Shown here piece by piece: positions 31,872 to 60,995 of a stretch of DNA of 64,000 nt. Source of the stretch: a virus. The stretch spans positions 32,001 to 96,000 of the IMG/VR virus record IMGVR_UViG_3300021425_002093; one strand, written 5' to 3'. The notes beneath the pieces are model-generated. The model was not told the origin of the DNA and made no database searches. It worked only from the letters and a program-made list of their open reading frames with translations. Numbering within the stretch: the first letter of the stretch is position 1; the number at the start of each line of letters is the position of its first letter. Made by a program: the position numbers and the translations under genes.

Positions 31872-32260
31872 CTTTTTAAACCGCCTTGTTCTTGTTCTTT
31901 TTTAATAGCGTCTATTTGTTCAGACGATAACAAAGACAAGTACTCTCGGCCAACCGTTTCGTTGCATTGATAATGATCGCATATTGCTTTCAAGTCTTCG
32001 TTATCACTTTTCTTTATCCACTTAGAAAATCTCTTTCTAGGTCTAATACTATTTAGTAAAAATTCGAATTGTGGACGATTATCCAGATCGCTATACATGT
32101 TCATAAGATTAGCATGTAAAACGGTGTCCGGAAAGTAAGACAGTGCGTTGTTTGAAAGCCATGGCTCATAGCCACGTTCAGCAAGTGTGTCGTTTTCAGT
32201 ATCACGCATTAAATTTTTCTTCGAATGCGTGATCGAGTTCACATAATCAAAAGGATTCAT
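31868..32260 (-). CDS. gp62: clamp loader small subunit
   Basis: MNPFDYVNSI, LSYFPDT...AN.MN, QFEFLLNSIRPRKRFSKW. Confidence 0.92.
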   Translation of the reverse strand: MNPFDYVNSITHSKKNLMRDTENDTLAERGYEPWLSNNALSYFPDTVLHANLMNMYSDLDNRPQFEFLLNSIRPRKRFSKWIKKSDNEDLKAICDHYQCNETVGREYLSLLSSEQIDAIKKEQEQGGLKR

Positions 32261-33084
32261 TCCATCACCATAATTTGTTGTTCGCTCACTAACGGATTCA
32301 TTGAGTTGTCCGTCTTCAACTTTTTTTTTACTTCGGGTTTAGCAATGATATCACGTTTGAACATTGCTGTCGATACTATCAATAGTATAATCGCCAAGGG
32401 GTCGAAAACAAACACAAGTAAAAGAATAACGAAACGAACCGCATTATCGATGTCATAGTTCTCTCCGTAAATTAGTTCTGCTATGTATTTGATTGGGCCG
32501 ATTTCTGCTTCAAGTTCAAGAGTTTGTTTCTGCAGGGGCAGAAGTTGTTCTTGGAATCCTGCAATCTGATCATACGCCAATCCGATTGTTCTGTTGAGTT
32601 CTGTCCTTTCCTCTGCTTGCGCCTTCCGAACCGCAATTGCTCCATCAGGTCCTCTAATTCGGTCATAGTCTTGCAGTATTTCAACCGCAGAGTCGAGTTG
32701 CGCCAAGACCGTTTCGGAGTCATCGATGATCGATTGCTGTCTTTCAATCTTTCTCTCGAGGCCGCTGATAAGTAATTCATTATTACCACCTTGATTTATT
32801 GTCTGCTCTAAGTGAGCCTTCGATAGATATCCAAAGATACCCATTGAAGTGATAATCATCAGGACAAATACTGCTGATATTAGATAAGTCCTAATCCATG
32901 TACTTATATCTTTCCACTCTAGATGAAGATATGCGGCAGTAACAAGTTTACCTATCTCTAGCACTGTCGCCATAATAACAACAGCCCAGAAAGCACCAGC
33001 AAAGATTGTAGACAATCCAATGATAGAGAAGTATCCCGCTACTGCCGCTATCGCAATAGCTGTAAGCAGAGTTACATACTTCAT
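32257..33084 (-). CDS. multi-TM membrane protein with long coiled coil
   Basis: 3 N-terminal TMs (LEIGKLV, TSMGIFGYLSKAH), coiled coil, EIGPIKY, VFDPLAI TM. Confidence 0.7.
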   Translation of the reverse strand: MKYVTLLTAIAIAAVAGYFSIIGLSTIFAGAFWAVVIMATVLEIGKLVTAAYLHLEWKDISTWIRTYLISAVFVLMIITSMGIFGYLSKAHLEQTINQGGNNELLISGLERKIERQQSIIDDSETVLAQLDSAVEILQDYDRIRGPDGAIAVRKAQAEERTELNRTIGLAYDQIAGFQEQLLPLQKQTLELEAEIGPIKYIAELIYGENYDIDNAVRFVILLLVFVFDPLAIILLIVSTAMFKRDIIAKPEVKKKLKTDNSMNPLVSEQQIMVME

Positions 33085-33293: not shown

Positions 33294-34235
33294 TCATTTC
33301 CACTCCATCTCCGCCATAAGAGTTGCGAGAGCCGCTACTCTATTTATCTCGGAGTTTGCAACGAACGCTTCTTTGTACTGATACTCAGCGAGAATCACAA
33401 TTGCGTCAGCTACATTTTGAGTAGACTTGAGTTTGCTGGGTAGCACATCATAGAGTTGGCGGTAGAGTACCGCTGACTCAACATGAGAATTCTCAGCAAC
33501 CCACTTACGAACATCTGTGAAGTTTCTTTCACGCATCCTACTAATCAGGTCATCAATAGACTCGCCTGAAGTTGATACTAATATACCAGCATCAATACGG
33601 CCAGTAGCAGAATAACGCTGTAGTTCATTAAGGACTCGACGCCAATCAGGAAAATAAGTTTTGATAAGTTCAGCAACAGATTTTTCATCATATTCAAGAT
33701 CCTCAGTTTCCAGTATTTTACAGCATCGCTTAAAAAACTGTCCGGCGAGTTTGGTTTTATCAGCACCAGTTACATTGAATTCAACTACACTACAACGAGA
33801 GTGTAAAGGCTCAATGATACGGTTCTTAAAGTTACAAGTTAGGATAAAGCCGCAGTTTTTTGAAAACTCTTCCATAAAGTTTCTAAGTGCAGGCTGAGTA
33901 GAGTTTGCATTCAGATAGTCAGCTTCGTCTAGAATGACATACTTGCGGCCGCCGGAAAAAGAAACACTAGAAGCAAAGTTAGCGATTTCAACACGTAGAG
34001 TATCGATGTTACCATTCATCGAACCGTTGATTGTAATATAGTCAGCGCCAATCTCTTCAAGCATAGCTTTGGCCACAGTAGTCTTGCCAATACCAGCACG
34101 ACCAGTCAATAGAAGATTGGGCACATTATTTTGATCGACAAATTGCTGAAATGTTTTTTTCAGAGAGTCGGGTAAGATAGTATCTTGAATTGTTTTAGGT
34201 CGATATCGTTCAACCCAAATAAAGTTGTCTTGCAT
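33294..34235 (-). CDS. gp44: clamp loader large subunit (AAA+)
   Basis: WVERYRP, GRAGIGKTT, ILDEAD, SRC, FPDWRR. Confidence 0.96.
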   Translation of the reverse strand: MQDNFIWVERYRPKTIQDTILPDSLKKTFQQFVDQNNVPNLLLTGRAGIGKTTVAKAMLEEIGADYITINGSMNGNIDTLRVEIANFASSVSFSGGRKYVILDEADYLNANSTQPALRNFMEEFSKNCGFILTCNFKNRIIEPLHSRCSVVEFNVTGADKTKLAGQFFKRCCKILETEDLEYDEKSVAELIKTYFPDWRRVLNELQRYSATGRIDAGILVSTSGESIDDLISRMRERNFTDVRKWVAENSHVESAVLYRQLYDVLPSKLKSTQNVADAIVILAEYQYKEAFVANSEINRVAALATLMAEMEWK

Positions 34236-34330: not shown

Positions 34331-34606
34331 TCATGCAGCTTCGGCTTGTTGAGCCTCCTGTTGCGCTTGCGCTTGCTGGACAAATGCTTGCAAACGATCT
34401 CGCACTTGACCAACTGAAGACATTTCTTCACCACGGATTGCTCCACGTGTTACAAAAACGTCAATGATTTGTACAGCGGCCGCAAGGTCAGCAAACGACA
34501 GTTGTACAGGTTCACCTTCTGGAGCACCGGGTGCGGGGGGTACATCCATCTCAGGCATGGTGGGTGCTTCAGCTACAGCTTCAGCGGTGGTTACGTCTTC
34601 ACTCAT
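34331..34606 (-). CDS. conserved hypothetical protein usually adjacent to gp45/gp44
   Basis: LSFADL..AVQIIDV...RGAIRGEEMSSVG..RDRL..FV. Confidence 0.7.
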   Translation of the reverse strand: MSEDVTTAEAVAEAPTMPEMDVPPAPGAPEGEPVQLSFADLAAAVQIIDVFVTRGAIRGEEMSSVGQVRDRLQAFVQQAQAQQEAQQAEAA

Positions 34607-34617
34607 AGTCTATCTCC

Positions 34618-36309
34618 TTAAGGGTTTGAGTCATCAACATAATCTACTGTAGTCCAGTAGGTCACATTACTTATATAACTTGTATCTTCTCCGTCAGTCT
34701 CTACTAGGTCCGCTGGATCATTCGGACGTGGATTCGCATTACCCGGTGCGCCAGGGCCAGTAGTATCGTAATCAGCTTCATATGTTTCGCTGTATCCATT
34801 GTTCAAAGCTTCAGCAAGTTCTTCAGCAGGAGTTGGCGCAACATACGTGTATGTACCAGTTCCGCCACTTCCACTTAGATCATTGGCCATGGCTACTAGT
34901 TTTGCATCTCGAAGAGCAAACTTTGCATCTTCAAGCTTTTCATCATTTTCCTGTATATCTAGAGTCTTTTGCTCTTCATACGCCTCGATGTCAGTTTCGA
35001 ATTGTTCGACCTGAGAATTAAATGACGAAATATTTGAATCAAATTCACTTTGATTGTATGTTATATTAACATAAGTTAGCTCACCTGTCAATTGCATTCT
35101 TTCAAATAGGCTCGAAAGAATCAATTCGTAGTCGATCCCAGAAAGTATCTTAGAGAAGAAACTTGCATCAACATAAAACGTAAAGTCATTTACAAACGGA
35201 GTGCCTGGTGCAGGTAAAGTCATTGTCCACTGATCTGATAGTACAGCGCTATCTTTCGCTAGATTAAACGTTACTGTGTTTCCACCAGTAAGACCTCGGA
35301 TTCCTATTTGCAAAGAAGGAAGTTCAGTAACGCTATTTGGATTTGTAGCGTTGTAGTCATCAACAGCTTGAGTGTAGTCGTTAACGGCTTGAGTGTACTG
35401 CTCAGACTTAAATTGAAGACTACTTAGATCTAAACCACTTTCGTTTTCAACTGGAGTAAGTTCAAACGATCCAGAAAAATCGAACTCCGCAGTGACACCT
35501 GATACTGCGCTATCGAGACCTTGCTGGCTTTCTGCTATTTGATATTGACTAACAGCGTTGTTAATCCTGTCAATATCGTTGTTCGTCAGCGTTACAGTAA
35601 CATCTTCGTCAGATGAAATATCTAATTGAGATACATCTGGTTGTGCTGGAATGTCTGCAGCATTTCCATACGGAAACGAGGCTATCTTTGCAGACGATCC
35701 AGATTGGATTTCTGTTATATCAAATTTACTTTGTGGATTAGAAAAAGTGACGAACGGAAGTTCGAAAAGAGTAAACTTTGCCAATAGACCGTTTATATCT
35801 CCCAATGGAGCAAGACTAGCAAACTGTATGGGGATGTTTGCTTGAGCGCTTATTGAGCCGTTAGAGCTATTAGATAGCAAATAGTTTGACGGATACTCAA
35901 TCACTCTTTGTATCGTCAACTCAGTATTTGTAATGTTTTGATTGTCGTTAACTGTGCCAGTATATGTAAGTCCTATGACGTAATTTCCACCTGGCGTTAA
36001 CGATGTAACTTCCCATCGACCGTCGAGGTTGGAATCTCCAACACCACTGATATCAATAAAATTATTGACTTCGAGACGATTAAAGAAATTGAGATAGTCT
36101 GCTGACGGGACTGGAGATACAGCATTGTTCCACTGTAGATTATCAGATCCAATAGTGTTAAGAACAACTCCATTAGAAACGAGCAAGCCCTTTTCATTAG
36201 AGTCGTCTAAAAATAGGTCGAAGTTATTTACGGGATCAAAAAAGATTCCGGAATCTAACTCAGAAAAAGCTTGCAGAATTTCTGTGGTTTCTGTAGTAAA
36301 CTGTGGCAT
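34618..36309 (-). CDS. divergent acidic paralog of sliding clamp gp45 with three large insertions
   Basis: Colinear similarity by eye to ORF 38963..39613 from N-terminus (QFTTETTEILQAFSELDSGIFF) to C-terminus (NVTYWTTV); late-promoter-like AATAAATA at 36339-36346. Confidence 0.7.
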   Translation of the reverse strand: MPQFTTETTEILQAFSELDSGIFFDPVNNFDLFLDDSNEKGLLVSNGVVLNTIGSDNLQWNNAVSPVPSADYLNFFNRLEVNNFIDISGVGDSNLDGRWEVTSLTPGGNYVIGLTYTGTVNDNQNITNTELTIQRVIEYPSNYLLSNSSNGSISAQANIPIQFASLAPLGDINGLLAKFTLFELPFVTFSNPQSKFDITEIQSGSSAKIASFPYGNAADIPAQPDVSQLDISSDEDVTVTLTNNDIDRINNAVSQYQIAESQQGLDSAVSGVTAEFDFSGSFELTPVENESGLDLSSLQFKSEQYTQAVNDYTQAVDDYNATNPNSVTELPSLQIGIRGLTGGNTVTFNLAKDSAVLSDQWTMTLPAPGTPFVNDFTFYVDASFFSKILSGIDYELILSSLFERMQLTGELTYVNITYNQSEFDSNISSFNSQVEQFETDIEAYEEQKTLDIQENDEKLEDAKFALRDAKLVAMANDLSGSGGTGTYTYVAPTPAEELAEALNNGYSETYEADYDTTGPGAPGNANPRPNDPADLVETDGEDTSYISNVTYWTTVDYVDDSNP

Positions 36310-36337: not shown

Positions 36338-36988
36338 CTATTTATTACTTTTATTTGAGTGCTGATCAGCAAGCGCAAGTTGATCTTCAATCCACCTAGC
36401 ACATTCTTTAGCAGTCATTGTAGGACTGATAAGAGGCGTTCTATCGTCTTTTCCGATTCCACGAATGACAGATGCAGACAACATCATAGCACTAGCCATG
36501 ATCATACAGACCTGATGTAAGCCAGATCCGTCTTCAGCATCATCGTGATCTATGCCTCGCTCGAAGTCATCGATATGTCGTTTGAGGCTATCGATCATCT
36601 GTTGCCATGGAAGTCCCTTCTCCCAATTTCTAGACTCATACTTCTTAGCGCCGTATTCAAAAGATGCGGCTGCTGCAGCAAGTGCTTCTAGCGGAAGGAA
36701 TCTCATGTACGGGACACCGAGTGCTTCTCTTGTTCCGCCTACTTCAGCATCAATCTCAATGTCTTCTGTCATATCCAGCAAATGACTTTCTTGCATCAAG
36801 TCATCTATGTAAGAGGCTGGAGCGGGGTCTACTAGTTCACAGTCGGATGCTAAAATGAAATTGAGATAGCCGTCAGATGATCGACAAGAATACTCTCCAT
36901 TCTGCAAGTCAAATACTTCCCAGTTCTCACCAACCTTAGAAGAATACCATCTGGATCTATCAGGACATTGCGTTATCTTTACTATCAT
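36338..36988 (-). CDS. dATP/dGTP diphosphohydrolase-domain (DUF5664-like) protein with extra N-terminal domain
   Basis: LP.EAL......YGAKKY..RNWEKG.PW....DSL.RH......D.EDGSGL. Confidence 0.75.
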   Translation of the reverse strand: MIVKITQCPDRSRWYSSKVGENWEVFDLQNGEYSCRSSDGYLNFILASDCELVDPAPASYIDDLMQESHLLDMTEDIEIDAEVGGTREALGVPYMRFLPLEALAAAAASFEYGAKKYESRNWEKGLPWQQMIDSLKRHIDDFERGIDHDDAEDGSGLHQVCMIMASAMMLSASVIRGIGKDDRTPLISPTMTAKECARWIEDQLALADQHSNKSNK

Positions 36989-37221
36989 ATGCTCTTCAAC
37001 TTTATCATTAAACTATCGTCCGAATAGTTTCCAGTGTTACACCACTTTCGAAACGCATCGCACGATAAAAGGTTTGCTTTACATTCAGCGCTTCGCTCAC
37101 AAGGAATGCAGGGACACTCTCGTGCATTGCTCGGTCCGAGATTTTGCTCTTCAGAGGAAGAATACTCTCCCGGCATTCCCTTGCCGTTTAAAGCTTCAGC
37201 GTCATACCATAGTATATCCAT
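36985..37221 (-). CDS. small Cys-rich hypothetical protein
   Basis: CPCIPC...C...CDAFRKWC; AGGAG SD. Confidence 0.55.
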   Translation of the reverse strand: MDILWYDAEALNGKGMPGEYSSSEEQNLGPSNARECPCIPCERSAECKANLLSCDAFRKWCNTGNYSDDSLMIKLKSI

Positions 37222-37313
37222 AAACTACTCCTATTGTCAAGAATAAAAAGGATGGAACTCGCACCACATAGCAATTAGTAGCAATTTTCGAAAGTACATC
37301 ATTCCATCAAAAC

Positions 37314-38931: not shown

Positions 38932-38960
38932 ATTCTAGCATAAGAAAAGCTAGTAGTCAA
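38932..38960 (-). promoter_or_regulatory. sigma70 promoter
   Basis: TTGACT-17 nt-TAGAAT with TG extension. Confidence 0.65.
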
Positions 38961-39661: not shown

Positions 39662-40369
39662 TCACTTGATGGCAATAGCTCCGACAAATAAATGATTCTG
39701 CCAGAACGGTTGAATTTTGTCAAACCCAAATCCCGCCGTAGCGAGAGCAGATTGTATTTCTTTCCATGTCATTGGCTTCAACATATTTCGAAGAGTTTGT
39801 TCTTTGTCCAAAATGTCTTTGTCTGAGAAGTTTTCCCGCTTGTAATCGTAATATGTAAACGTCATCATTTCTTGTAGTCTTGGATCTTGAGCAACCGTTT
39901 TCTCAGCAAAGATAAACGCACCATTCTTGTTCAGTGAATTGTAAATCTTCTTGAGTACATCACGACGAGATGTGGGGGGCATGAATTGTAGGGTGAAGAT
40001 CGAAGTGATTAGATTTGCATTCACAAAATCATAGTTGCGAATGTCGCCAATATGAAACTCAACCTTTCCTTCGACACCACCAAACTCTTCACGCATTTGC
40101 TTTTCACGTTCGTCGAGAGCAGGAATAAATCCATCAGCATACTCAATTCCCACGTATGTTGCGTTGGGAGCAAATTCGTTGTTTTGTCTCATCATCGCAT
40201 GAATAGTCTTGCCTGTTGAACAACCAAGATCAATTACGTTTGTATCGTCTTCAACAAAGTATCTACTAAGATTCACTATATCATCATGTAAAACACTATA
40301 GCCACGAATAGATTTGTCGATATGATCATCGAATCCTTCGTCTCTATGTGCAAAGGTAAAATCAGGCAT
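39662..40369 (-). CDS. cmoA: CmoA-like carboxy-S-adenosylmethionine synthase
   Basis: FTF...FDDHI.KSI.GY, DLGCSTG, GDIR, FTLQF, AEK, YKR match the recalled E. coli CmoA pattern (DWTF..FPDMIQRSVPGY, DLGCSLG, GDIR, NFTLQF, SEK, FKR). Confidence 0.85.
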   Translation of the reverse strand: MPDFTFAHRDEGFDDHIDKSIRGYSVLHDDIVNLSRYFVEDDTNVIDLGCSTGKTIHAMMRQNNEFAPNATYVGIEYADGFIPALDEREKQMREEFGGVEGKVEFHIGDIRNYDFVNANLITSIFTLQFMPPTSRRDVLKKIYNSLNKNGAFIFAEKTVAQDPRLQEMMTFTYYDYKRENFSDKDILDKEQTLRNMLKPMTWKEIQSALATAGFGFDKIQPFWQNHLFVGAIAIK

Positions 40370-40904
40370 TGTTCACTCTCCTCAGTTCATCATCTGTCCA
40401 GTTACCAAACTTCTTTGCTACTCGTAAGGGTATCTCTATAAACTTATCGTCTATCCATTCATTATTGAGATAAACTTTCTTTCGCTTCATTGTCCACATA
40501 TACTTTCTTTGCATTTCATCTGTACTCACGAGCGCTTTATCACCTTGCTTGTTAAGTGTACAACCTATGTAGGGTAGTCCCTCTTCTTTCCAGTACTTAA
40601 TCTTTCTTGCGAGTGCGTGACACCATCGATAGTTCTCAGGCCAGTCGGGATCCCACTTGATATAGTAATCGACTTCTATCAGACCGATCAACTCACCATT
40701 TTGCTTCACGCCGAGATCTACTTTGTAATCGCCAAGCGGGTCTTTGCATATCTTAGTGTTTGCTTCATCCGTGATATTAAACTGCGCTTTTATGTACTCT
40801 CGAAATTCATTATCTGTGTGAATCAGATTTACTAATGCGTCTCTCTGATAAGAATCATCATAGCAGTTTTCGCCATTATGCTCTCGTATTCGTTGACTAA
40901 GCAT
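40362..40904 (-). CDS. hypothetical protein, PD-(D/E)xK nuclease-like
   Basis: D...YKVDL...IEVDYYIKW...W.HALARKIKY; 8-nt overlaps with both neighbours. Confidence 0.5.
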   Translation of the reverse strand: MLSQRIREHNGENCYDDSYQRDALVNLIHTDNEFREYIKAQFNITDEANTKICKDPLGDYKVDLGVKQNGELIGLIEVDYYIKWDPDWPENYRWCHALARKIKYWKEEGLPYIGCTLNKQGDKALVSTDEMQRKYMWTMKRKKVYLNNEWIDDKFIEIPLRVAKKFGNWTDDELRRVNNA

Positions 40905-42114
40905 TGTAAGGCTTTATCACATTTTCATAGACGGACTTTGCAAGTTCAGCCATCATCTTAGGAGCAACCATTCGACCAATTCGCTCCGCTTTCTGATTGA
41001 AGGTTCCCGTCAGTTGATAGTCCTCGGGCAATCCCATCAATCTCTTGAGTTCTGGTATCGTAAACTTACGATTATAATCATAGTGAAACACTCCGGAAGT
41101 AGTCATCTGTTGACCTAACTGAGTTAGTGTTGGACAAGGATGATAGGGAGAAGGCCGTTTCATATTAAAACACGATCCTGTTGGATTCCAATCAGCGAAC
41201 TCAGGCTGACTTGGGTTCAGTGTCTTATGTGGTCGAAATGGTAAGTTCTCGATAAACTTTTTCTGATAGGTTCTTTGTACGTAGTCGAGCAACATTTGGA
41301 TCTCTTCTGGATCATTTTCAATACCAGATAGTGCGCTTTCCATAGGAATCTTATCAGAGGTTCTCTCTGGAAACACTCGATTCATCGTTAGCACATTCAT
41401 ATCAATTGAATCAAATACATCTTGTCGAATACAAACAAAGATGGTGCGCTCACGATTCTGTGCTGTGCCATAATCAGCCGCATTCATCACTTGATACGTA
41501 ACCTCGTATCCAATTTCTTCAAATGCATTGATAAACTCAACAAGCTTACCTTTTGCTTCGCCCATAGTGATTCCCTTAACGTTCTCAGCGATGATCACTT
41601 TTGGCTGAATATCTTTTGCAATCCGAACAAACTCTAAAAACAGATCTTCAATACCTTCTTGAACCTTGTTGTCTGAGTATTTCTTTACTCCATCCTGTAC
41701 GACTATCTCACCTTCGTGAACAATATCTCCATTCTCATCGAAGTAAGACTTGCGTGTGTCTTTTACGTAACCAGCCCAGCCTTTCTCACGCTTACCCGAA
41801 ACAGAAAACGCAGAACAAGGAGGCGATCCATCTAGGATATCAAGCTCACCCTTTTTAATATTTGCAAGAGAAAGAAAATCTTCTCCAGTATACTTCTTAA
41901 TATCATCAACTAGGATTTTCGTGTCAGTATAGTTTTGCTTGTATGACGCAATCGCTTCTTCAACAAACTCGTTGATTAAAAGAACTTTTCCACCAGCGAG
42001 ACGATATCCAGTGCTACTCCCACCGCCGCCAGCAAAACAACTAATGACACTAAATCTATTTTCGTTAGACGCATTGATTACATCCTCGACTGTATATGGC
42101 TTGTATTCATTCAT
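40897..42114 (-). CDS. DNA cytosine-C5 transferase (Dcm family), predicted carboxymethyltransferase
   Basis: Motif I CFAGGGGS, IV GSPPCSAFS, VI ENVKG, VIII QNRER, X ERIGRMVAP (Arg in place of the usual GNAV Asn). Confidence 0.88.
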   Translation of the reverse strand: MNEYKPYTVEDVINASNENRFSVISCFAGGGGSSTGYRLAGGKVLLINEFVEEAIASYKQNYTDTKILVDDIKKYTGEDFLSLANIKKGELDILDGSPPCSAFSVSGKREKGWAGYVKDTRKSYFDENGDIVHEGEIVVQDGVKKYSDNKVQEGIEDLFLEFVRIAKDIQPKVIIAENVKGITMGEAKGKLVEFINAFEEIGYEVTYQVMNAADYGTAQNRERTIFVCIRQDVFDSIDMNVLTMNRVFPERTSDKIPMESALSGIENDPEEIQMLLDYVQRTYQKKFIENLPFRPHKTLNPSQPEFADWNPTGSCFNMKRPSPYHPCPTLTQLGQQMTTSGVFHYDYNRKFTIPELKRLMGLPEDYQLTGTFNQKAERIGRMVAPKMMAELAKSVYENVIKPYNA

Positions 42115-58505: not shown

Positions 58506-60995
58506 TTATGGAGCATAGTTTCTTTCGAGAGGCGCTACCACAGTAATATTATTAGCGTTACCTTCGTTAATTATGAAGGGCGTTGATACCCACTGTGCTG
58601 TATCAGTACCAACTGCTCTAATTACTGTATTTACCGCAGTATCAGAAAGTCGATTTTCTTCTCCGTTTGCAGAGTTGGGAGTCGTGTCACCAGTGAAAGC
58701 GTAGTCGAATGCGAATCCATTAGCATTGATGCTTCCAGAACCAGAGCCTGATATTTCACTTGTACCATTTGCTTGAAGTACAATAATCGCATCAGGCGAG
58801 TTAACAGGATTAAAACGGAAGTTTTCAGTTCCAGTAGTTTGAGCTTCGTTAGTGACCGCTCCATTTGGATTATCGTCATCTAACTTAGTTGCCGCAAAGG
58901 ATGCAGTTGTATCAGCCGCACTACCAGCTACGATGCTTCCAGTAACTTCCCAAACTCCATTGTTTCCAGCATTAGTGAATCCAGAGAAGTCAAGATAGTC
59001 TCCGACTGTCACTTCTGGCATATTATTAGTACCACCGTCTGTAATTGTAGCAGTTTGACCTGAAGCAGATGTGACGGAAAGTGCCGTAACATCAAACTCA
59101 CGAGTATACTCATAGTAGACTGTAAACGAAGGTTCGCTATCGTTAATTAAGTTGTCGTTGAATGAGATCGTACCAGAAGCAATCTTCGGGAAGAGTTCTA
59201 GCGATCCACCACCACCAGTGTATCGGAATGCTAAGTTACCAATATCTCCACTAGAGAAGTTAATGATAGCAACACCAGCATCGTTTGTAGCGCCGTCAGC
59301 GTGTTCTACAAGCAATGTCTGTAGAGTTGGTCCAACGAATGTCAACAATTCGTCAGAAGTCTTACCAACCTGAACGATTGAATCCGCACCTTCGTCATCG
59401 ACGTTAGTTGTTCTACGTAGACGATACTTAACCCAAGAATATAGCTCTTGAAGTGTAAGATTGCCAGTTCCAGTGCCATTCTCCGCACTGATCGTTACAC
59501 CAAAGTTTCTGGATGTGTTAAGATCAACTCCACCAGAGTAGAGTGTAGCGGAAGAAACGTCAGCGGCGAGATAGTTGATCTCTGGACCATTACCAGCCGC
59601 AACATCATACTTTTCGTTAGCACCATCAGCGGCTTCGATAACCTTGTCAGAAATTGTATAATCAAGATCTCTCAACTCCGCAAGTGGGAATCGGAATACC
59701 TGATAGTTTACAGCCGCACCAGATGCGATACCAATCGACACTGAGTCTGACTTACCAAACGTCTTACCTTCTTCACGAACGAAGAGAGAAAGTTCGTTAG
59801 TTCTGTTATCCGTAGTTCCATCAAACGTTTGAATTGCTTCGTTTACGGCACCAGCATATGTAAAGTCAGCAGTCGTTCCGTAATTAATATTTCGAATATT
59901 AACAACATCAGCTTCAGTTGTGTTAGTCAACGGTGTTCCCGTCAATACAATGTTGTTACTAGCGGCTGTAGCAATTGTAAATTGGCCGTCATTCGTTCCA
60001 CCCGATGTTCCAGAAATGACGATGATATCTCCATTAGAGAACGAATCAAAATCTCCAGCCGCACCTGTAATTGTATTAGTAGCCGTGATAACAAGTCCAG
60101 CTTTTCTGAGAGCGGGACGGAATGCGTAGTAAACAGTGTCACCGCCGCCAATTGTAACGGAAGCACCAACAGTTTCTGCGGTGAATGATGTTGCTGTGTC
60201 TGAAATGTAATCTTTAACTGTAAGTACGTCAGCAGTACCACCAGCACCGTCTGAAGTGACGTTAGTTACAACATATGTACCATCATTTCCGTTTGCGCTA
60301 CCGCTAACAGTGATCGTGTCTCCTGCCACAAAAATACCAAAGTTTTCTCCCGTTGATGTGATATCAGCACCAGAGAAGGAAATATCGGTTGCAGTGATAT
60401 TTGTGATCGCTTTACCATCAACAGTACCCAGTGAGATAACTCCCACATACTCAGCAAGTACAGTACCAGTAGTTGTGATCTCTCTCCATCCAGCAGTACG
60501 AATCAACTTTCGTGTTGCATCTGAGTTTGGAGTCCAATCAAACGAAAATTCAAACTGCTCTGGAGTAATTGCCACGAGCGGGAAAGGATATTCGATCAGA
60601 TGGTTGATAAACGTTACTGTATCTGTGCCAGTAAAGGTTGTATCAATATTTTTGTTTAGTGTTACTGTTGTTCCGCTAACACTAGCAACTTCAGTGGCGT
60701 CTAAAAGAACACCAGAACCAGAAGCGACTATGACAGTCATTCCTGGCAGAATTTCTTCCGAAGAAGGGCCAGCGGCTTGATCGAGTACAAGATCAGCTTG
60801 ACCGGACGCTCCAGAAGTTACGCCAATTGTAAAGTTTCGTACTCGCCACACCTTCTTGAGATATGAGTACATTGCCTGAAGAGTAACACCGTCTGGAGAA
60901 AGACCTCCGGCTAGTGCTAGTGAAATGTCTCTTGTTGCGGCATCTATCTGTAATTCTGTTCTTGATAGATCACCACCAGAAGTAATGATAGCCAT
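58506..60995 (-). CDS. large virion protein with repeated beta-barrel modules
   Basis: Three GD.I.(V/I/F)SG....NDG.(Y/F/W) repeats; two TLQ.(M/L)YS(Y/W).K motifs; ends LERNYAP; late promoter at 61033-61040. Confidence 0.65.
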   Translation of the reverse strand: MAIITSGGDLSRTELQIDAATRDISLALAGGLSPDGVTLQAMYSYLKKVWRVRNFTIGVTSGASGQADLVLDQAAGPSSEEILPGMTVIVASGSGVLLDATEVASVSGTTVTLNKNIDTTFTGTDTVTFINHLIEYPFPLVAITPEQFEFSFDWTPNSDATRKLIRTAGWREITTTGTVLAEYVGVISLGTVDGKAITNITATDISFSGADITSTGENFGIFVAGDTITVSGSANGNDGTYVVTNVTSDGAGGTADVLTVKDYISDTATSFTAETVGASVTIGGGDTVYYAFRPALRKAGLVITATNTITGAAGDFDSFSNGDIIVISGTSGGTNDGQFTIATAASNNIVLTGTPLTNTTEADVVNIRNINYGTTADFTYAGAVNEAIQTFDGTTDNRTNELSLFVREEGKTFGKSDSVSIGIASGAAVNYQVFRFPLAELRDLDYTISDKVIEAADGANEKYDVAAGNGPEINYLAADVSSATLYSGGVDLNTSRNFGVTISAENGTGTGNLTLQELYSWVKYRLRRTTNVDDEGADSIVQVGKTSDELLTFVGPTLQTLLVEHADGATNDAGVAIINFSSGDIGNLAFRYTGGGGSLELFPKIASGTISFNDNLINDSEPSFTVYYEYTREFDVTALSVTSASGQTATITDGGTNNMPEVTVGDYLDFSGFTNAGNNGVWEVTGSIVAGSAADTTASFAATKLDDDNPNGAVTNEAQTTGTENFRFNPVNSPDAIIVLQANGTSEISGSGSGSINANGFAFDYAFTGDTTPNSANGEENRLSDTAVNTVIRAVGTDTAQWVSTPFIINEGNANNITVVAPLERNYAP

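Follow-up and report, generated by a model that had tools for sequence, protein, structure and literature searches.

The DNA analysed here is a 64,000-nucleotide stretch of an uncultured virus (the window), bases 32001-96000 of the 143,934-bp IMG/VR record IMGVR_UViG_3300021425_002093, in which nearly all genes lie on the minus strand. The phage is T4-like, with a clamp-loader subunit gp44 that shares at most 59% identity with those of Stenotrophomonas phage DLP_6, the Methylophilales Melnitz phages, the Sinorhizobium phiM12 group and cyanomyoviruses. It is probably marine, since the contig bearing a near-identical copy of the gene discussed below carries a name that we take to be that of an Ocean Sampling Day sample. 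In the order of transcription, a gp46-like SbcC gene, a C5-cytosine methyltransferase-like gene, a 180-amino-acid (aa) open reading frame (ORF) and a methyltransferase gene are followed by the canonical sliding-clamp gene gp45, for which 678 relatives were found, and by six small ORFs. Next come a MazZ-like gene, a 563-aa ORF that is the subject of this report, a 91-aa ORF and gp44, and after these a 70-aa ORF, a gene for a 275-aa membrane/coiled-coil protein, gp62 and regA (Table 1). The 563-aa ORF thus sits where a first-pass annotation of the sequence had placed it, in the usual gp45 slot upstream of gp44 with the single 91-aa ORF in between. Judged by its sequence and its predicted structure, it is a duplicate of gp45, probably neofunctionalised and 2.6 times the length of the canonical clamp, in which a near-complete clamp protomer is interrupted at three loops.

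Table 1 Features of the expanded gp45 locus and of related elements (window coordinates unless a handle is given).
Feature	Position	Strand	Evidence or remark
Expanded gp45 paralogue, coding sequence, 563 aa + stop	34618-36309	(-)	phrog_223 1.3e-9; hhalign 99.5%; Z 20.4 to 1czd_A
aa 1-26: strand 1, helix 1 and strand 2 of clamp domain 1	36232-36309	(-)	aligns with gp45 residues 1-24; match of the family profile to gp45 in PDB begins here
Insertion 1, aa 27-139	35893-36231	(-)	gap in 6/8 family members and in all gp45s
Virion-type module in insertion 1, aa 75-124	35938-36087	(-)	HMM 14.1 bits
aa 140-257: rest of domain 1, interdomain linker, first strand and helix of domain 2	35539-35892	(-)	phrog_223, hhalign, alignment of stripped core
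Insertion 2, aa 258-329	35323-35538	(-)	whole family; model helices 243-269, 295-322
aa 330-416: beta-sheet body of domain 2	35062-35322	(-)	aligns with gp45 ~134-203 after stripping; pLDDT ~85-92
Insertion 3, aa 417-540, in last beta-hairpin	34690-35061	(-)	family alignment; model helices 420-480, 494-503, 510-513
aa 541-563 + stop: last clamp strand	34618-34689	(-)	invariant Tyr-Trp pair
AATAAATA, late-promoter-like motif	36339-36346	(-)	29 nt before paralogue ATG; overlaps stop codon of upstream gene
Carriers of the virion-type module	G000:C1:96623-99286 (L026); window 58506-60995; L027; L013		
Canonical gp45 sliding clamp, 216 aa	38963-39613	(-)	phrog_223 2e-65; PF09116 (39 bits)
gp44, clamp-loader large subunit	33294-34235	(-)	phrog_168 1.6e-115; PF21328
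MazZ-like dATP/dGTP pyrophosphohydrolase, directly upstream of paralogue	36338-36988	(-)	PF18909 3.8e-20
91-aa acidic ORF between paralogue and gp44	34331-34606	(-)	59-76% identity in seven loci
GATAAATA, inside 3' end of gp44	33341-33348	(-)	~47 nt before next small ORF
Near-consensus sigma-70-type promoter	37211-37240	(-)	TTGACA-18-TATACT
Near-consensus sigma-70-type promoter	38932-38960	(-)	TTGACT-17-TAGAAT, preceded by TG
275-aa membrane protein between gp44 and gp62	32257-33084	(-)	
Methyltransferase region between gp46 and gp45	39662-42114	(-)	

Direct comparison between the expanded protein and the phage's own gp45 is weak (best pairwise BLAST E 0.036, in the N-terminal block), and no Pfam family is returned for the 563-aa protein at E <= 0.01, so that the threshold for PF09116 is not reached. 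Profile methods recover the relationship in several ways. The full protein matches PHROG 223 (DNA polymerase processivity factor) over aa 140-260, corresponding to profile positions 25-137, and a profile of seven family members matches T4 and RB69 gp45 in the PDB at 2e-5. When the family profile is aligned by hhalign with a profile of 36 gp45 sequences, the match spans both clamp domains and covers gp45 columns 1-199 of 223 (probability 99.5%, E 5e-23). With its insertions stripped, the core is colinear with gp45 from end to end in a MAFFT alignment and matches a gp45 hidden Markov model (HMM) as a single domain over positions 2-196, with an E-value of 1.1e-7 at a database size of one million, as against 0.0085 before stripping. 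Other family members score between 1e-12 and 1e-21. The five sequence blocks in which the first-pass annotation had seen a colinear likeness to gp45 all align, both in MAFFT after stripping and in hhalign. A tblastn search of 50,697 cultured-phage records with the 563-aa protein gave no match. A likeness to the A118 integrase in the PDB sequence search (E 0.07, in a coiled coil) was rejected as an effect of helix composition.

An AlphaFold2 model of the protein, built from an alignment of the eight family sequences described below, has a mean predicted local distance difference test (pLDDT) score of 63.7, with values of 70-92 in the clamp core and below 50 in insertion 1. Its top Foldseek matches are T4 gp45 (6drt, 3u61, 1czd) and RB69 gp45 (1b77), followed by PCNAs and the 9-1-1 clamp, the best having an E-value of 4e-6 and a template modelling (TM) score of 0.64 normalised by target. 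In a VIA-align superposition on 1czd_A, 219 of 228 residues align at a root-mean-square deviation of 2.6 A across model residues 2-560, and the Z-score of 20.4 lies about 4 units above that of the best PCNA. The shortest relative, of 340 aa (P0010), models with more confidence (pLDDT 84.7, predicted TM score 0.74), and again gp45 is the best match (TM 0.73-0.76 by target). In the viral structure library BFVD, the best matches are ordinary gp45s of 220-237 aa, and an expanded form is absent among the matches from BFVD and from the isolate searches, which consist of gp45-type phage clamps of 198-237 aa. Contrary to the refuting outcome named in the first-pass annotation, the stripped sequence retains its match to gp45 and the model retains the two-domain clamp fold; a near-complete gp45 protomer is embedded in the 563-aa protein. 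Profile-profile comparison, the stripped-core HMM and structural superposition therefore agree on a duplicated gp45 folded around three insertions, as had been proposed at first reading.

The insertions total about 310 residues, and their limits in the family alignment and the model (about 27-139, 258-329 and 417-540) lie close to those drawn from the sequence by eye (27-141, 258-329 and 411-545). Insertion 1, between strands 2 and 3 of domain 1, is present in the 563-aa protein and in a 581-aa relative and is modelled at low confidence as beta-rich (pLDDT below 50 over aa 29-139). Insertion 2 prolongs the first helix of domain 2 into a low-confidence tip, from which a second helix returns; the equivalent helices of the 340-aa relative (126-151 and 162-184) have high pLDDT. 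Insertion 3 consists of a long helix, short helices and a proline-rich return segment, and its size varies across the family: the 340-aa form has one helix and a return strand rich in Pro and Thr, and other members have up to about 200 residues. The earlier suggestion that insertions 2 and 3 are coiled-coil hairpins stands insofar as both are helical in the model, and is not borne out there for the hairpin of insertion 3. The last clamp strand follows insertion 3 and contains Y551 and W552, which do not vary among the paralogues or in any aligned gp45. When the three insertions were searched on their own, Pfam gave nothing credible, and the ESM Atlas gave scores below 0.8 and no lead.

The first-pass annotation had called for a search of related genomes for similar clamp paralogues, and this search recovered a family of eight distinct members of 340-581 aa, all from uncultured sources. 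Six related clusters, recovered when 1.84 billion representatives were searched exhaustively, comprise one fragment of 75 aa and otherwise full-length proteins of 340-581 aa, with 29-39% identity over the matched stretches. The full-length proteins of these clusters all match PHROG 223 at 1e-8 to 1e-19. A further member came from IMG/VR, where the same contig was seen three times (L008, L009 and L024). Word-indexed protein searches with the single protein or the family profile returned the query alone; one metagenome/IMG/VR scan gave no match, and the other scans together added the one IMG/VR member already named. When the 427-aa relative was compared with isolate phages, the matches were confined to the N-terminal domains of ordinary gp45s. 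Two candidates were set aside, one being an ordinary 222-aa gp45 (L025) and the other a low-complexity repeat protein (P0011). No published description of an expanded second gp45 was found in the literature. What is new here is an unannotated family of gp45 paralogues that has neither a Pfam model nor a cultured representative; the fold itself is already known.

Gene order around the paralogue is constant. At every locus the sequence is MazZ-like gene, paralogue, conserved small ORF and gp44, and longer contigs continue with a 224-275-aa membrane protein, gp62, regA, gp43 and uvsX. Wherever a contig extends far enough, a canonical gp45 of 215-216 aa lies 3-5 kb upstream of the paralogue. The slot adjoining gp44 is filled by gp45 itself in DLP_6 and Melnitz, and for this reason the expanded gene would most simply be the diverged product of a gp45 duplication. 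A comparison of the window with a 94%-identical variant (L021) gives a ratio of nonsynonymous to synonymous substitution rates (dN/dS) of 0.127 overall, 0.109 in the core, 0.143 in the insertions and 0.10 in insertion 3, next to 0.03-0.26 in neighbouring genes. This pattern indicates that the paralogue is maintained under purifying selection, in its core as well as in its insertions. A decaying duplicate that has lost any function might be expected to show the very low identity to gp45 and the missing Pfam match described above, but the reading frame is intact in eight divergent genomes with conserved synteny, dN/dS is 0.13 with the insertions included, and the core models confidently. Decay is hardly credible and appears already contradicted by these data on selection and conservation.

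The core of the paralogue departs from a working clamp in its charge. In the 36 gp45 sequences, 17 alignment columns hold at least 70% lysine or arginine. The 563-aa protein keeps none of these basic residues, those of the channel-lining helices included, and the family as a whole keeps one such column, in five of its eight members. The clamp core contains 8 Lys+Arg and 31 Asp+Glu, as against gp45 means of about 20 and 28, which amounts to a net charge of -23 compared with about -8. Since every conserved basic position of gp45 is gone, we infer that the function of a DNA-encircling processivity clamp has been lost, and the non-encircling role put forward by the first-pass annotation gains indirect support from both the empty columns and the shift in charge. 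In PCNA, the interdomain linker and the C-terminus lie on the front face of the ring, and Lys164, in the loop between strands 2 and 3 of domain 2, lies on the back face. On this topology insertion 2 should rise from the front face, where partners and loader bind, beside the channel, and insertions 1 and 3 should rise from the back. The expected position of insertion 2 and the lost basic columns together argue against a role as a loader-mounted ring around DNA.

Nevertheless, the complete clamp protomer is retained, the gene lies upstream of the clamp loader in every genome, and the first helix of domain 2 has a few basic residues whose conservation is specific to the family. Such features would suit a protein that is still loaded onto DNA, either as an alternative homotrimeric clamp, mounted by gp44/62 for a special task such as late transcription, repair or modification, or as a subunit of a mixed ring comparable to heterotrimeric archaeal PCNA or the 9-1-1 complex, in which two canonical gp45 subunits could supply the basic lining. 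We regard this as decidedly unlikely, as it would have to be squared with the loss of all 17 basic columns, with a core about three times as negative as that of gp45, with an insertion expected on the loader and polymerase face, and with a lysine plus arginine (K+R) content of 3-6% in the family that is unlike that of every other replication protein of the phage.

The first reading had counted about 19 lysines and arginines and called the protein strongly acidic. K+R is exactly 19, next to 84 Asp+Glu (D+E), and the protein has a net charge of -65, an isoelectric point (pI) of about 4.05 and neither cysteine nor histidine. At 3.4%, its K+R content is the fourth lowest among the 119 ORFs of at least 100 aa, and the remaining ORFs with about 6% or less are all either late or situated among the large structural-type genes. 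The corresponding range is about 9-14% in replication proteins and 3.4-5.6% across the eight members of the family. The acidity of the paralogue results from this scarcity of lysine and arginine, as D+E reaches an ordinary 14.9% against a proteome median of 14%, and the combination of low K+R with high Asn/Ser/Thr/Gly is the pattern of a structural protein. With D+E at this ordinary level, the paralogue is not built like a DNA mimic. An anti-restriction protein of the Ocr or ArdA kind, erected on a clamp scaffold, might otherwise be suggested by the net charge, the pI and the putative DNA-modification cassette nearby; the strong Asp/Glu excess that it calls for is missing, however, and the composition fits the structural proteins of the phage rather than known DNA mimics, which makes this explanation very improbable. 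As a general feature of the genome, the proteome falls into two composition classes, one of large late or structural-type proteins with 2.5-6% K+R and 32-41% Asn/Ser/Thr/Gly (51% in one protein) and one of replication and metabolic proteins with about 9-14% K+R, and its overall median pI is 5.0.

A module shared with virion-type proteins is a further sign of a late or virion-type role. It is about 70 aa long, carries the motif G-D-x-I-x-[IV]-S-G...N-D-G-x-[YFW]-x-V and coincides in part with PHROG 1236. Three copies occur in an 829-aa late protein and two in the 887-aa tail sheath; a 446-aa protein has one copy, as does a 1246-aa protein that matches a PHROG 'virion structural protein'. In insertion 1, an HMM built from these seven virion-type copies reaches 14.1 bits for the 563-aa protein and 9.4 bits for the 581-aa relative; it reaches 11.8 bits in an extra insert within domain 2 of a 539-aa relative and 13.0 bits in the enlarged insertion 3 of a 501-aa relative. 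All four scores exceed every one of 2000 locally shuffled control sequences (maximum 8.6 bits), and the four members without extra beta-rich inserts score at most 0.7. The same type of module has therefore been acquired at three different loops, and it appears to be a mobile surface module of the phage.

Signals for late expression point in a similar direction for the long forms. The late-promoter-like motif AATAAATA noticed at first reading is not enriched in a plain count (2 against 4.2 expected), while TATAAATA is strongly enriched in the window, with 14 occurrences against 3.3 expected. Genome-wide, 24 NATAAATA motifs lie on the gene strand 20-60 nt before a start codon, where about 1.3 would be expected by chance according to our own rough estimate from base composition. 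Most of these start-proximal motifs precede large genes, and in late genes the spacing is 20-56 nt. The case for a late promoter is strengthened by the spacing of the motif before the ATG of the paralogue and by its conservation in two relatives, as ATAAATAGTA(C/T)AGT stands at equal spacing before both the 94%-identical variant and the 39%-identical 581-aa form (L004), its first base varying.

Other candidate promoters lie in the same region. The octamer GATAAATA inside the 3' end of gp44 occurs at the same place in the window and in L004, L005, L018, L019, L021 and L024, and it may be either an internal late promoter for downstream genes or a mere conserved coding string. Two near-consensus sigma-70-type sites lie further upstream, where small ORFs fill the interval from gp45 to the MazZ-like gene; these are probably early promoters, from which the paralogue would also be transcribed. 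The total of sigma-70-type sites in this region is not above chance.

Taken together, we tentatively favour a reading in which, in the long-form lineage, the paralogue would be made late in infection and would form a clamp-fold ring, presumably a trimer. This putative ring would serve as a virion-associated or assembly protein rather than a replication factor, and it would display surface modules like those of the tail sheath. The narrower proposal, in which a virion-associated trimeric ring such as a collar or decoration has arisen from a sliding clamp by exaptation and displays exchangeable modules of the tail-sheath type, is possible and on the doubtful side. Several observations weigh against a virion or assembly role. 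The gene is located in the replication cluster, and we know of no virion protein with a clamp fold. The five short-form relatives have no late-promoter motif nearby, and in these the paralogue abuts or overlaps the MazZ-like gene, as would a co-transcribed early or middle gene. The family conserves a few basic positions of its own, including two in the first helix of domain 2 and its extension, and low K+R could follow simply from the loss of DNA binding. Finally, the expected front-face placement of insertion 2 is drawn from PCNA topology and not from coordinates.

Alternatively, the paralogue could be a soluble clamp mimic, as a ring or as a monomer, which keeps the partner pocket of gp45 and cannot ride on DNA, and which would work intracellularly as a hub, sink or decoy. 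Its targets, in turn, could be the clamp-binding tails of gp43, gp55, gp33, ligase or the loader, or a clamp-sensing host factor. The C-terminal Tyr-Trp pair, whose residues are among the sole ones invariant in both families, and the linker pattern Y-x-Y...I-V-x-P common to both presumably line the peptide pocket, by analogy with PCNA, and such a mimic would agree with the lost basic positions, with a gene placed among replication genes beside the loader and with short forms that seem to be co-transcribed with early or middle genes. It would not account for a tail-sheath-type module gained at three different loops, for the structural-protein-like composition of the whole family or for a dedicated late-promoter motif in the long forms. 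We consider such a mimic unlikely, and the evidence of composition and of the tail-sheath module leans towards a virion-type or late role over a decoy.

The genes around the paralogue show some further regularities. The MazZ-like gene is its upstream neighbour in L004, L005, L006, L016, L018, L019, L020 and L021, and overlaps the start of the paralogue in several short-form relatives. Its product has 216 aa in the window and 172-220 aa in long-form loci, compared with 132-146 aa in short-form relatives, and thus carries an N-terminal extension of about 80 aa. The 91-aa ORF is much better conserved than the paralogue, with an invariant core of approximately Q-L-S..D...Q-I-I-D-V..R-G-A.R-G-E-E..S-V-G..R-D-R. 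Among the 50,697 phage records its sole match is in Agrobacterium phage Atu_ph07, in an uninformative context, and the small ORF that separates gp45 from gp44 in Stenotrophomonas phage DLP_6 is not similar to it. Its product is a candidate for a partner, either of the paralogue or of the loader. The 275-aa protein encoded between gp44 and gp62 has several transmembrane helices near its N-terminus, a coiled coil in the middle and one further transmembrane helix at its C-terminus. It keeps this position throughout the clade, at lengths of 224-275 aa, shows the highest dN/dS of the cluster (0.26) and has no match in Pfam or PHROG. Between gp46 and gp45 lie a gene of the C5-cytosine methyltransferase family, the 180-aa ORF, for which no family match was found, and a class I methyltransferase gene (PHROG 'tRNA methyltransferase').

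Few replication proteins are as strongly conserved as sliding clamps, and their known paralogues, 9-1-1 among them, continue to encircle DNA. In this case, a phage copy of the clamp retains the entire fold, sheds its basic residues and gains a module that the phage uses on its own tail sheath and virion-type proteins. If the paralogue is indeed a component of the virion or of its assembly, it would mark a route from replisome to particle and a new use for a pseudo-sixfold ring; as a virion-associated trimeric ring it would be the first viral structural protein with a clamp fold. If it is instead a soluble mimic, it would represent a built-in regulator or decoy of the traffic of clamp partners.

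Comparison with known systems places the paralogue closest to T4 and RB69 gp45 (PDB 1CZD, 1B77 and 6DRT; PHROG 223; PF09116). Like these it has a two-domain protomer with profile homology across both domains, the linker pattern, the C-terminal Tyr-Trp pair and a gene just upstream of gp44/62. It differs from them in its length (563 aa as opposed to 216-228 aa), its three insertions and its lack of a Pfam match, in the absence of the 17 conserved basic columns and a core that is about threefold more negative, and in having a late-promoter motif, a virion-type module and a normal gp45 in the same genome. The Rad9-Hus1-Rad1 (9-1-1) complex and Sulfolobus PCNA1-2-3 are likewise products of clamp duplication, whose subunits have kept the fold and diverged towards a task of their own, and both 9-1-1 and heterotrimeric Sulfolobus PCNA are among the structural matches of the model. 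Unlike the paralogue, they encircle DNA, are loaded by RFC-type loaders, carry tails instead of large loop insertions and are not depleted of basic residues. Poxvirus VLTF-1 (G8) and herpesvirus UL42/UL44 offer a third comparison, as viral clamp-fold proteins that do not act as loader-dependent rings, and a poxvirus 'late transcription factor 1' is among the BFVD matches (E 2.8e-5). VLTF-1 and UL42/UL44 contact DNA or the transcription machinery through basic faces. They have no detectable sequence relation to the paralogue, and none of them bears insertions with a virion-type module such as those found in this family.

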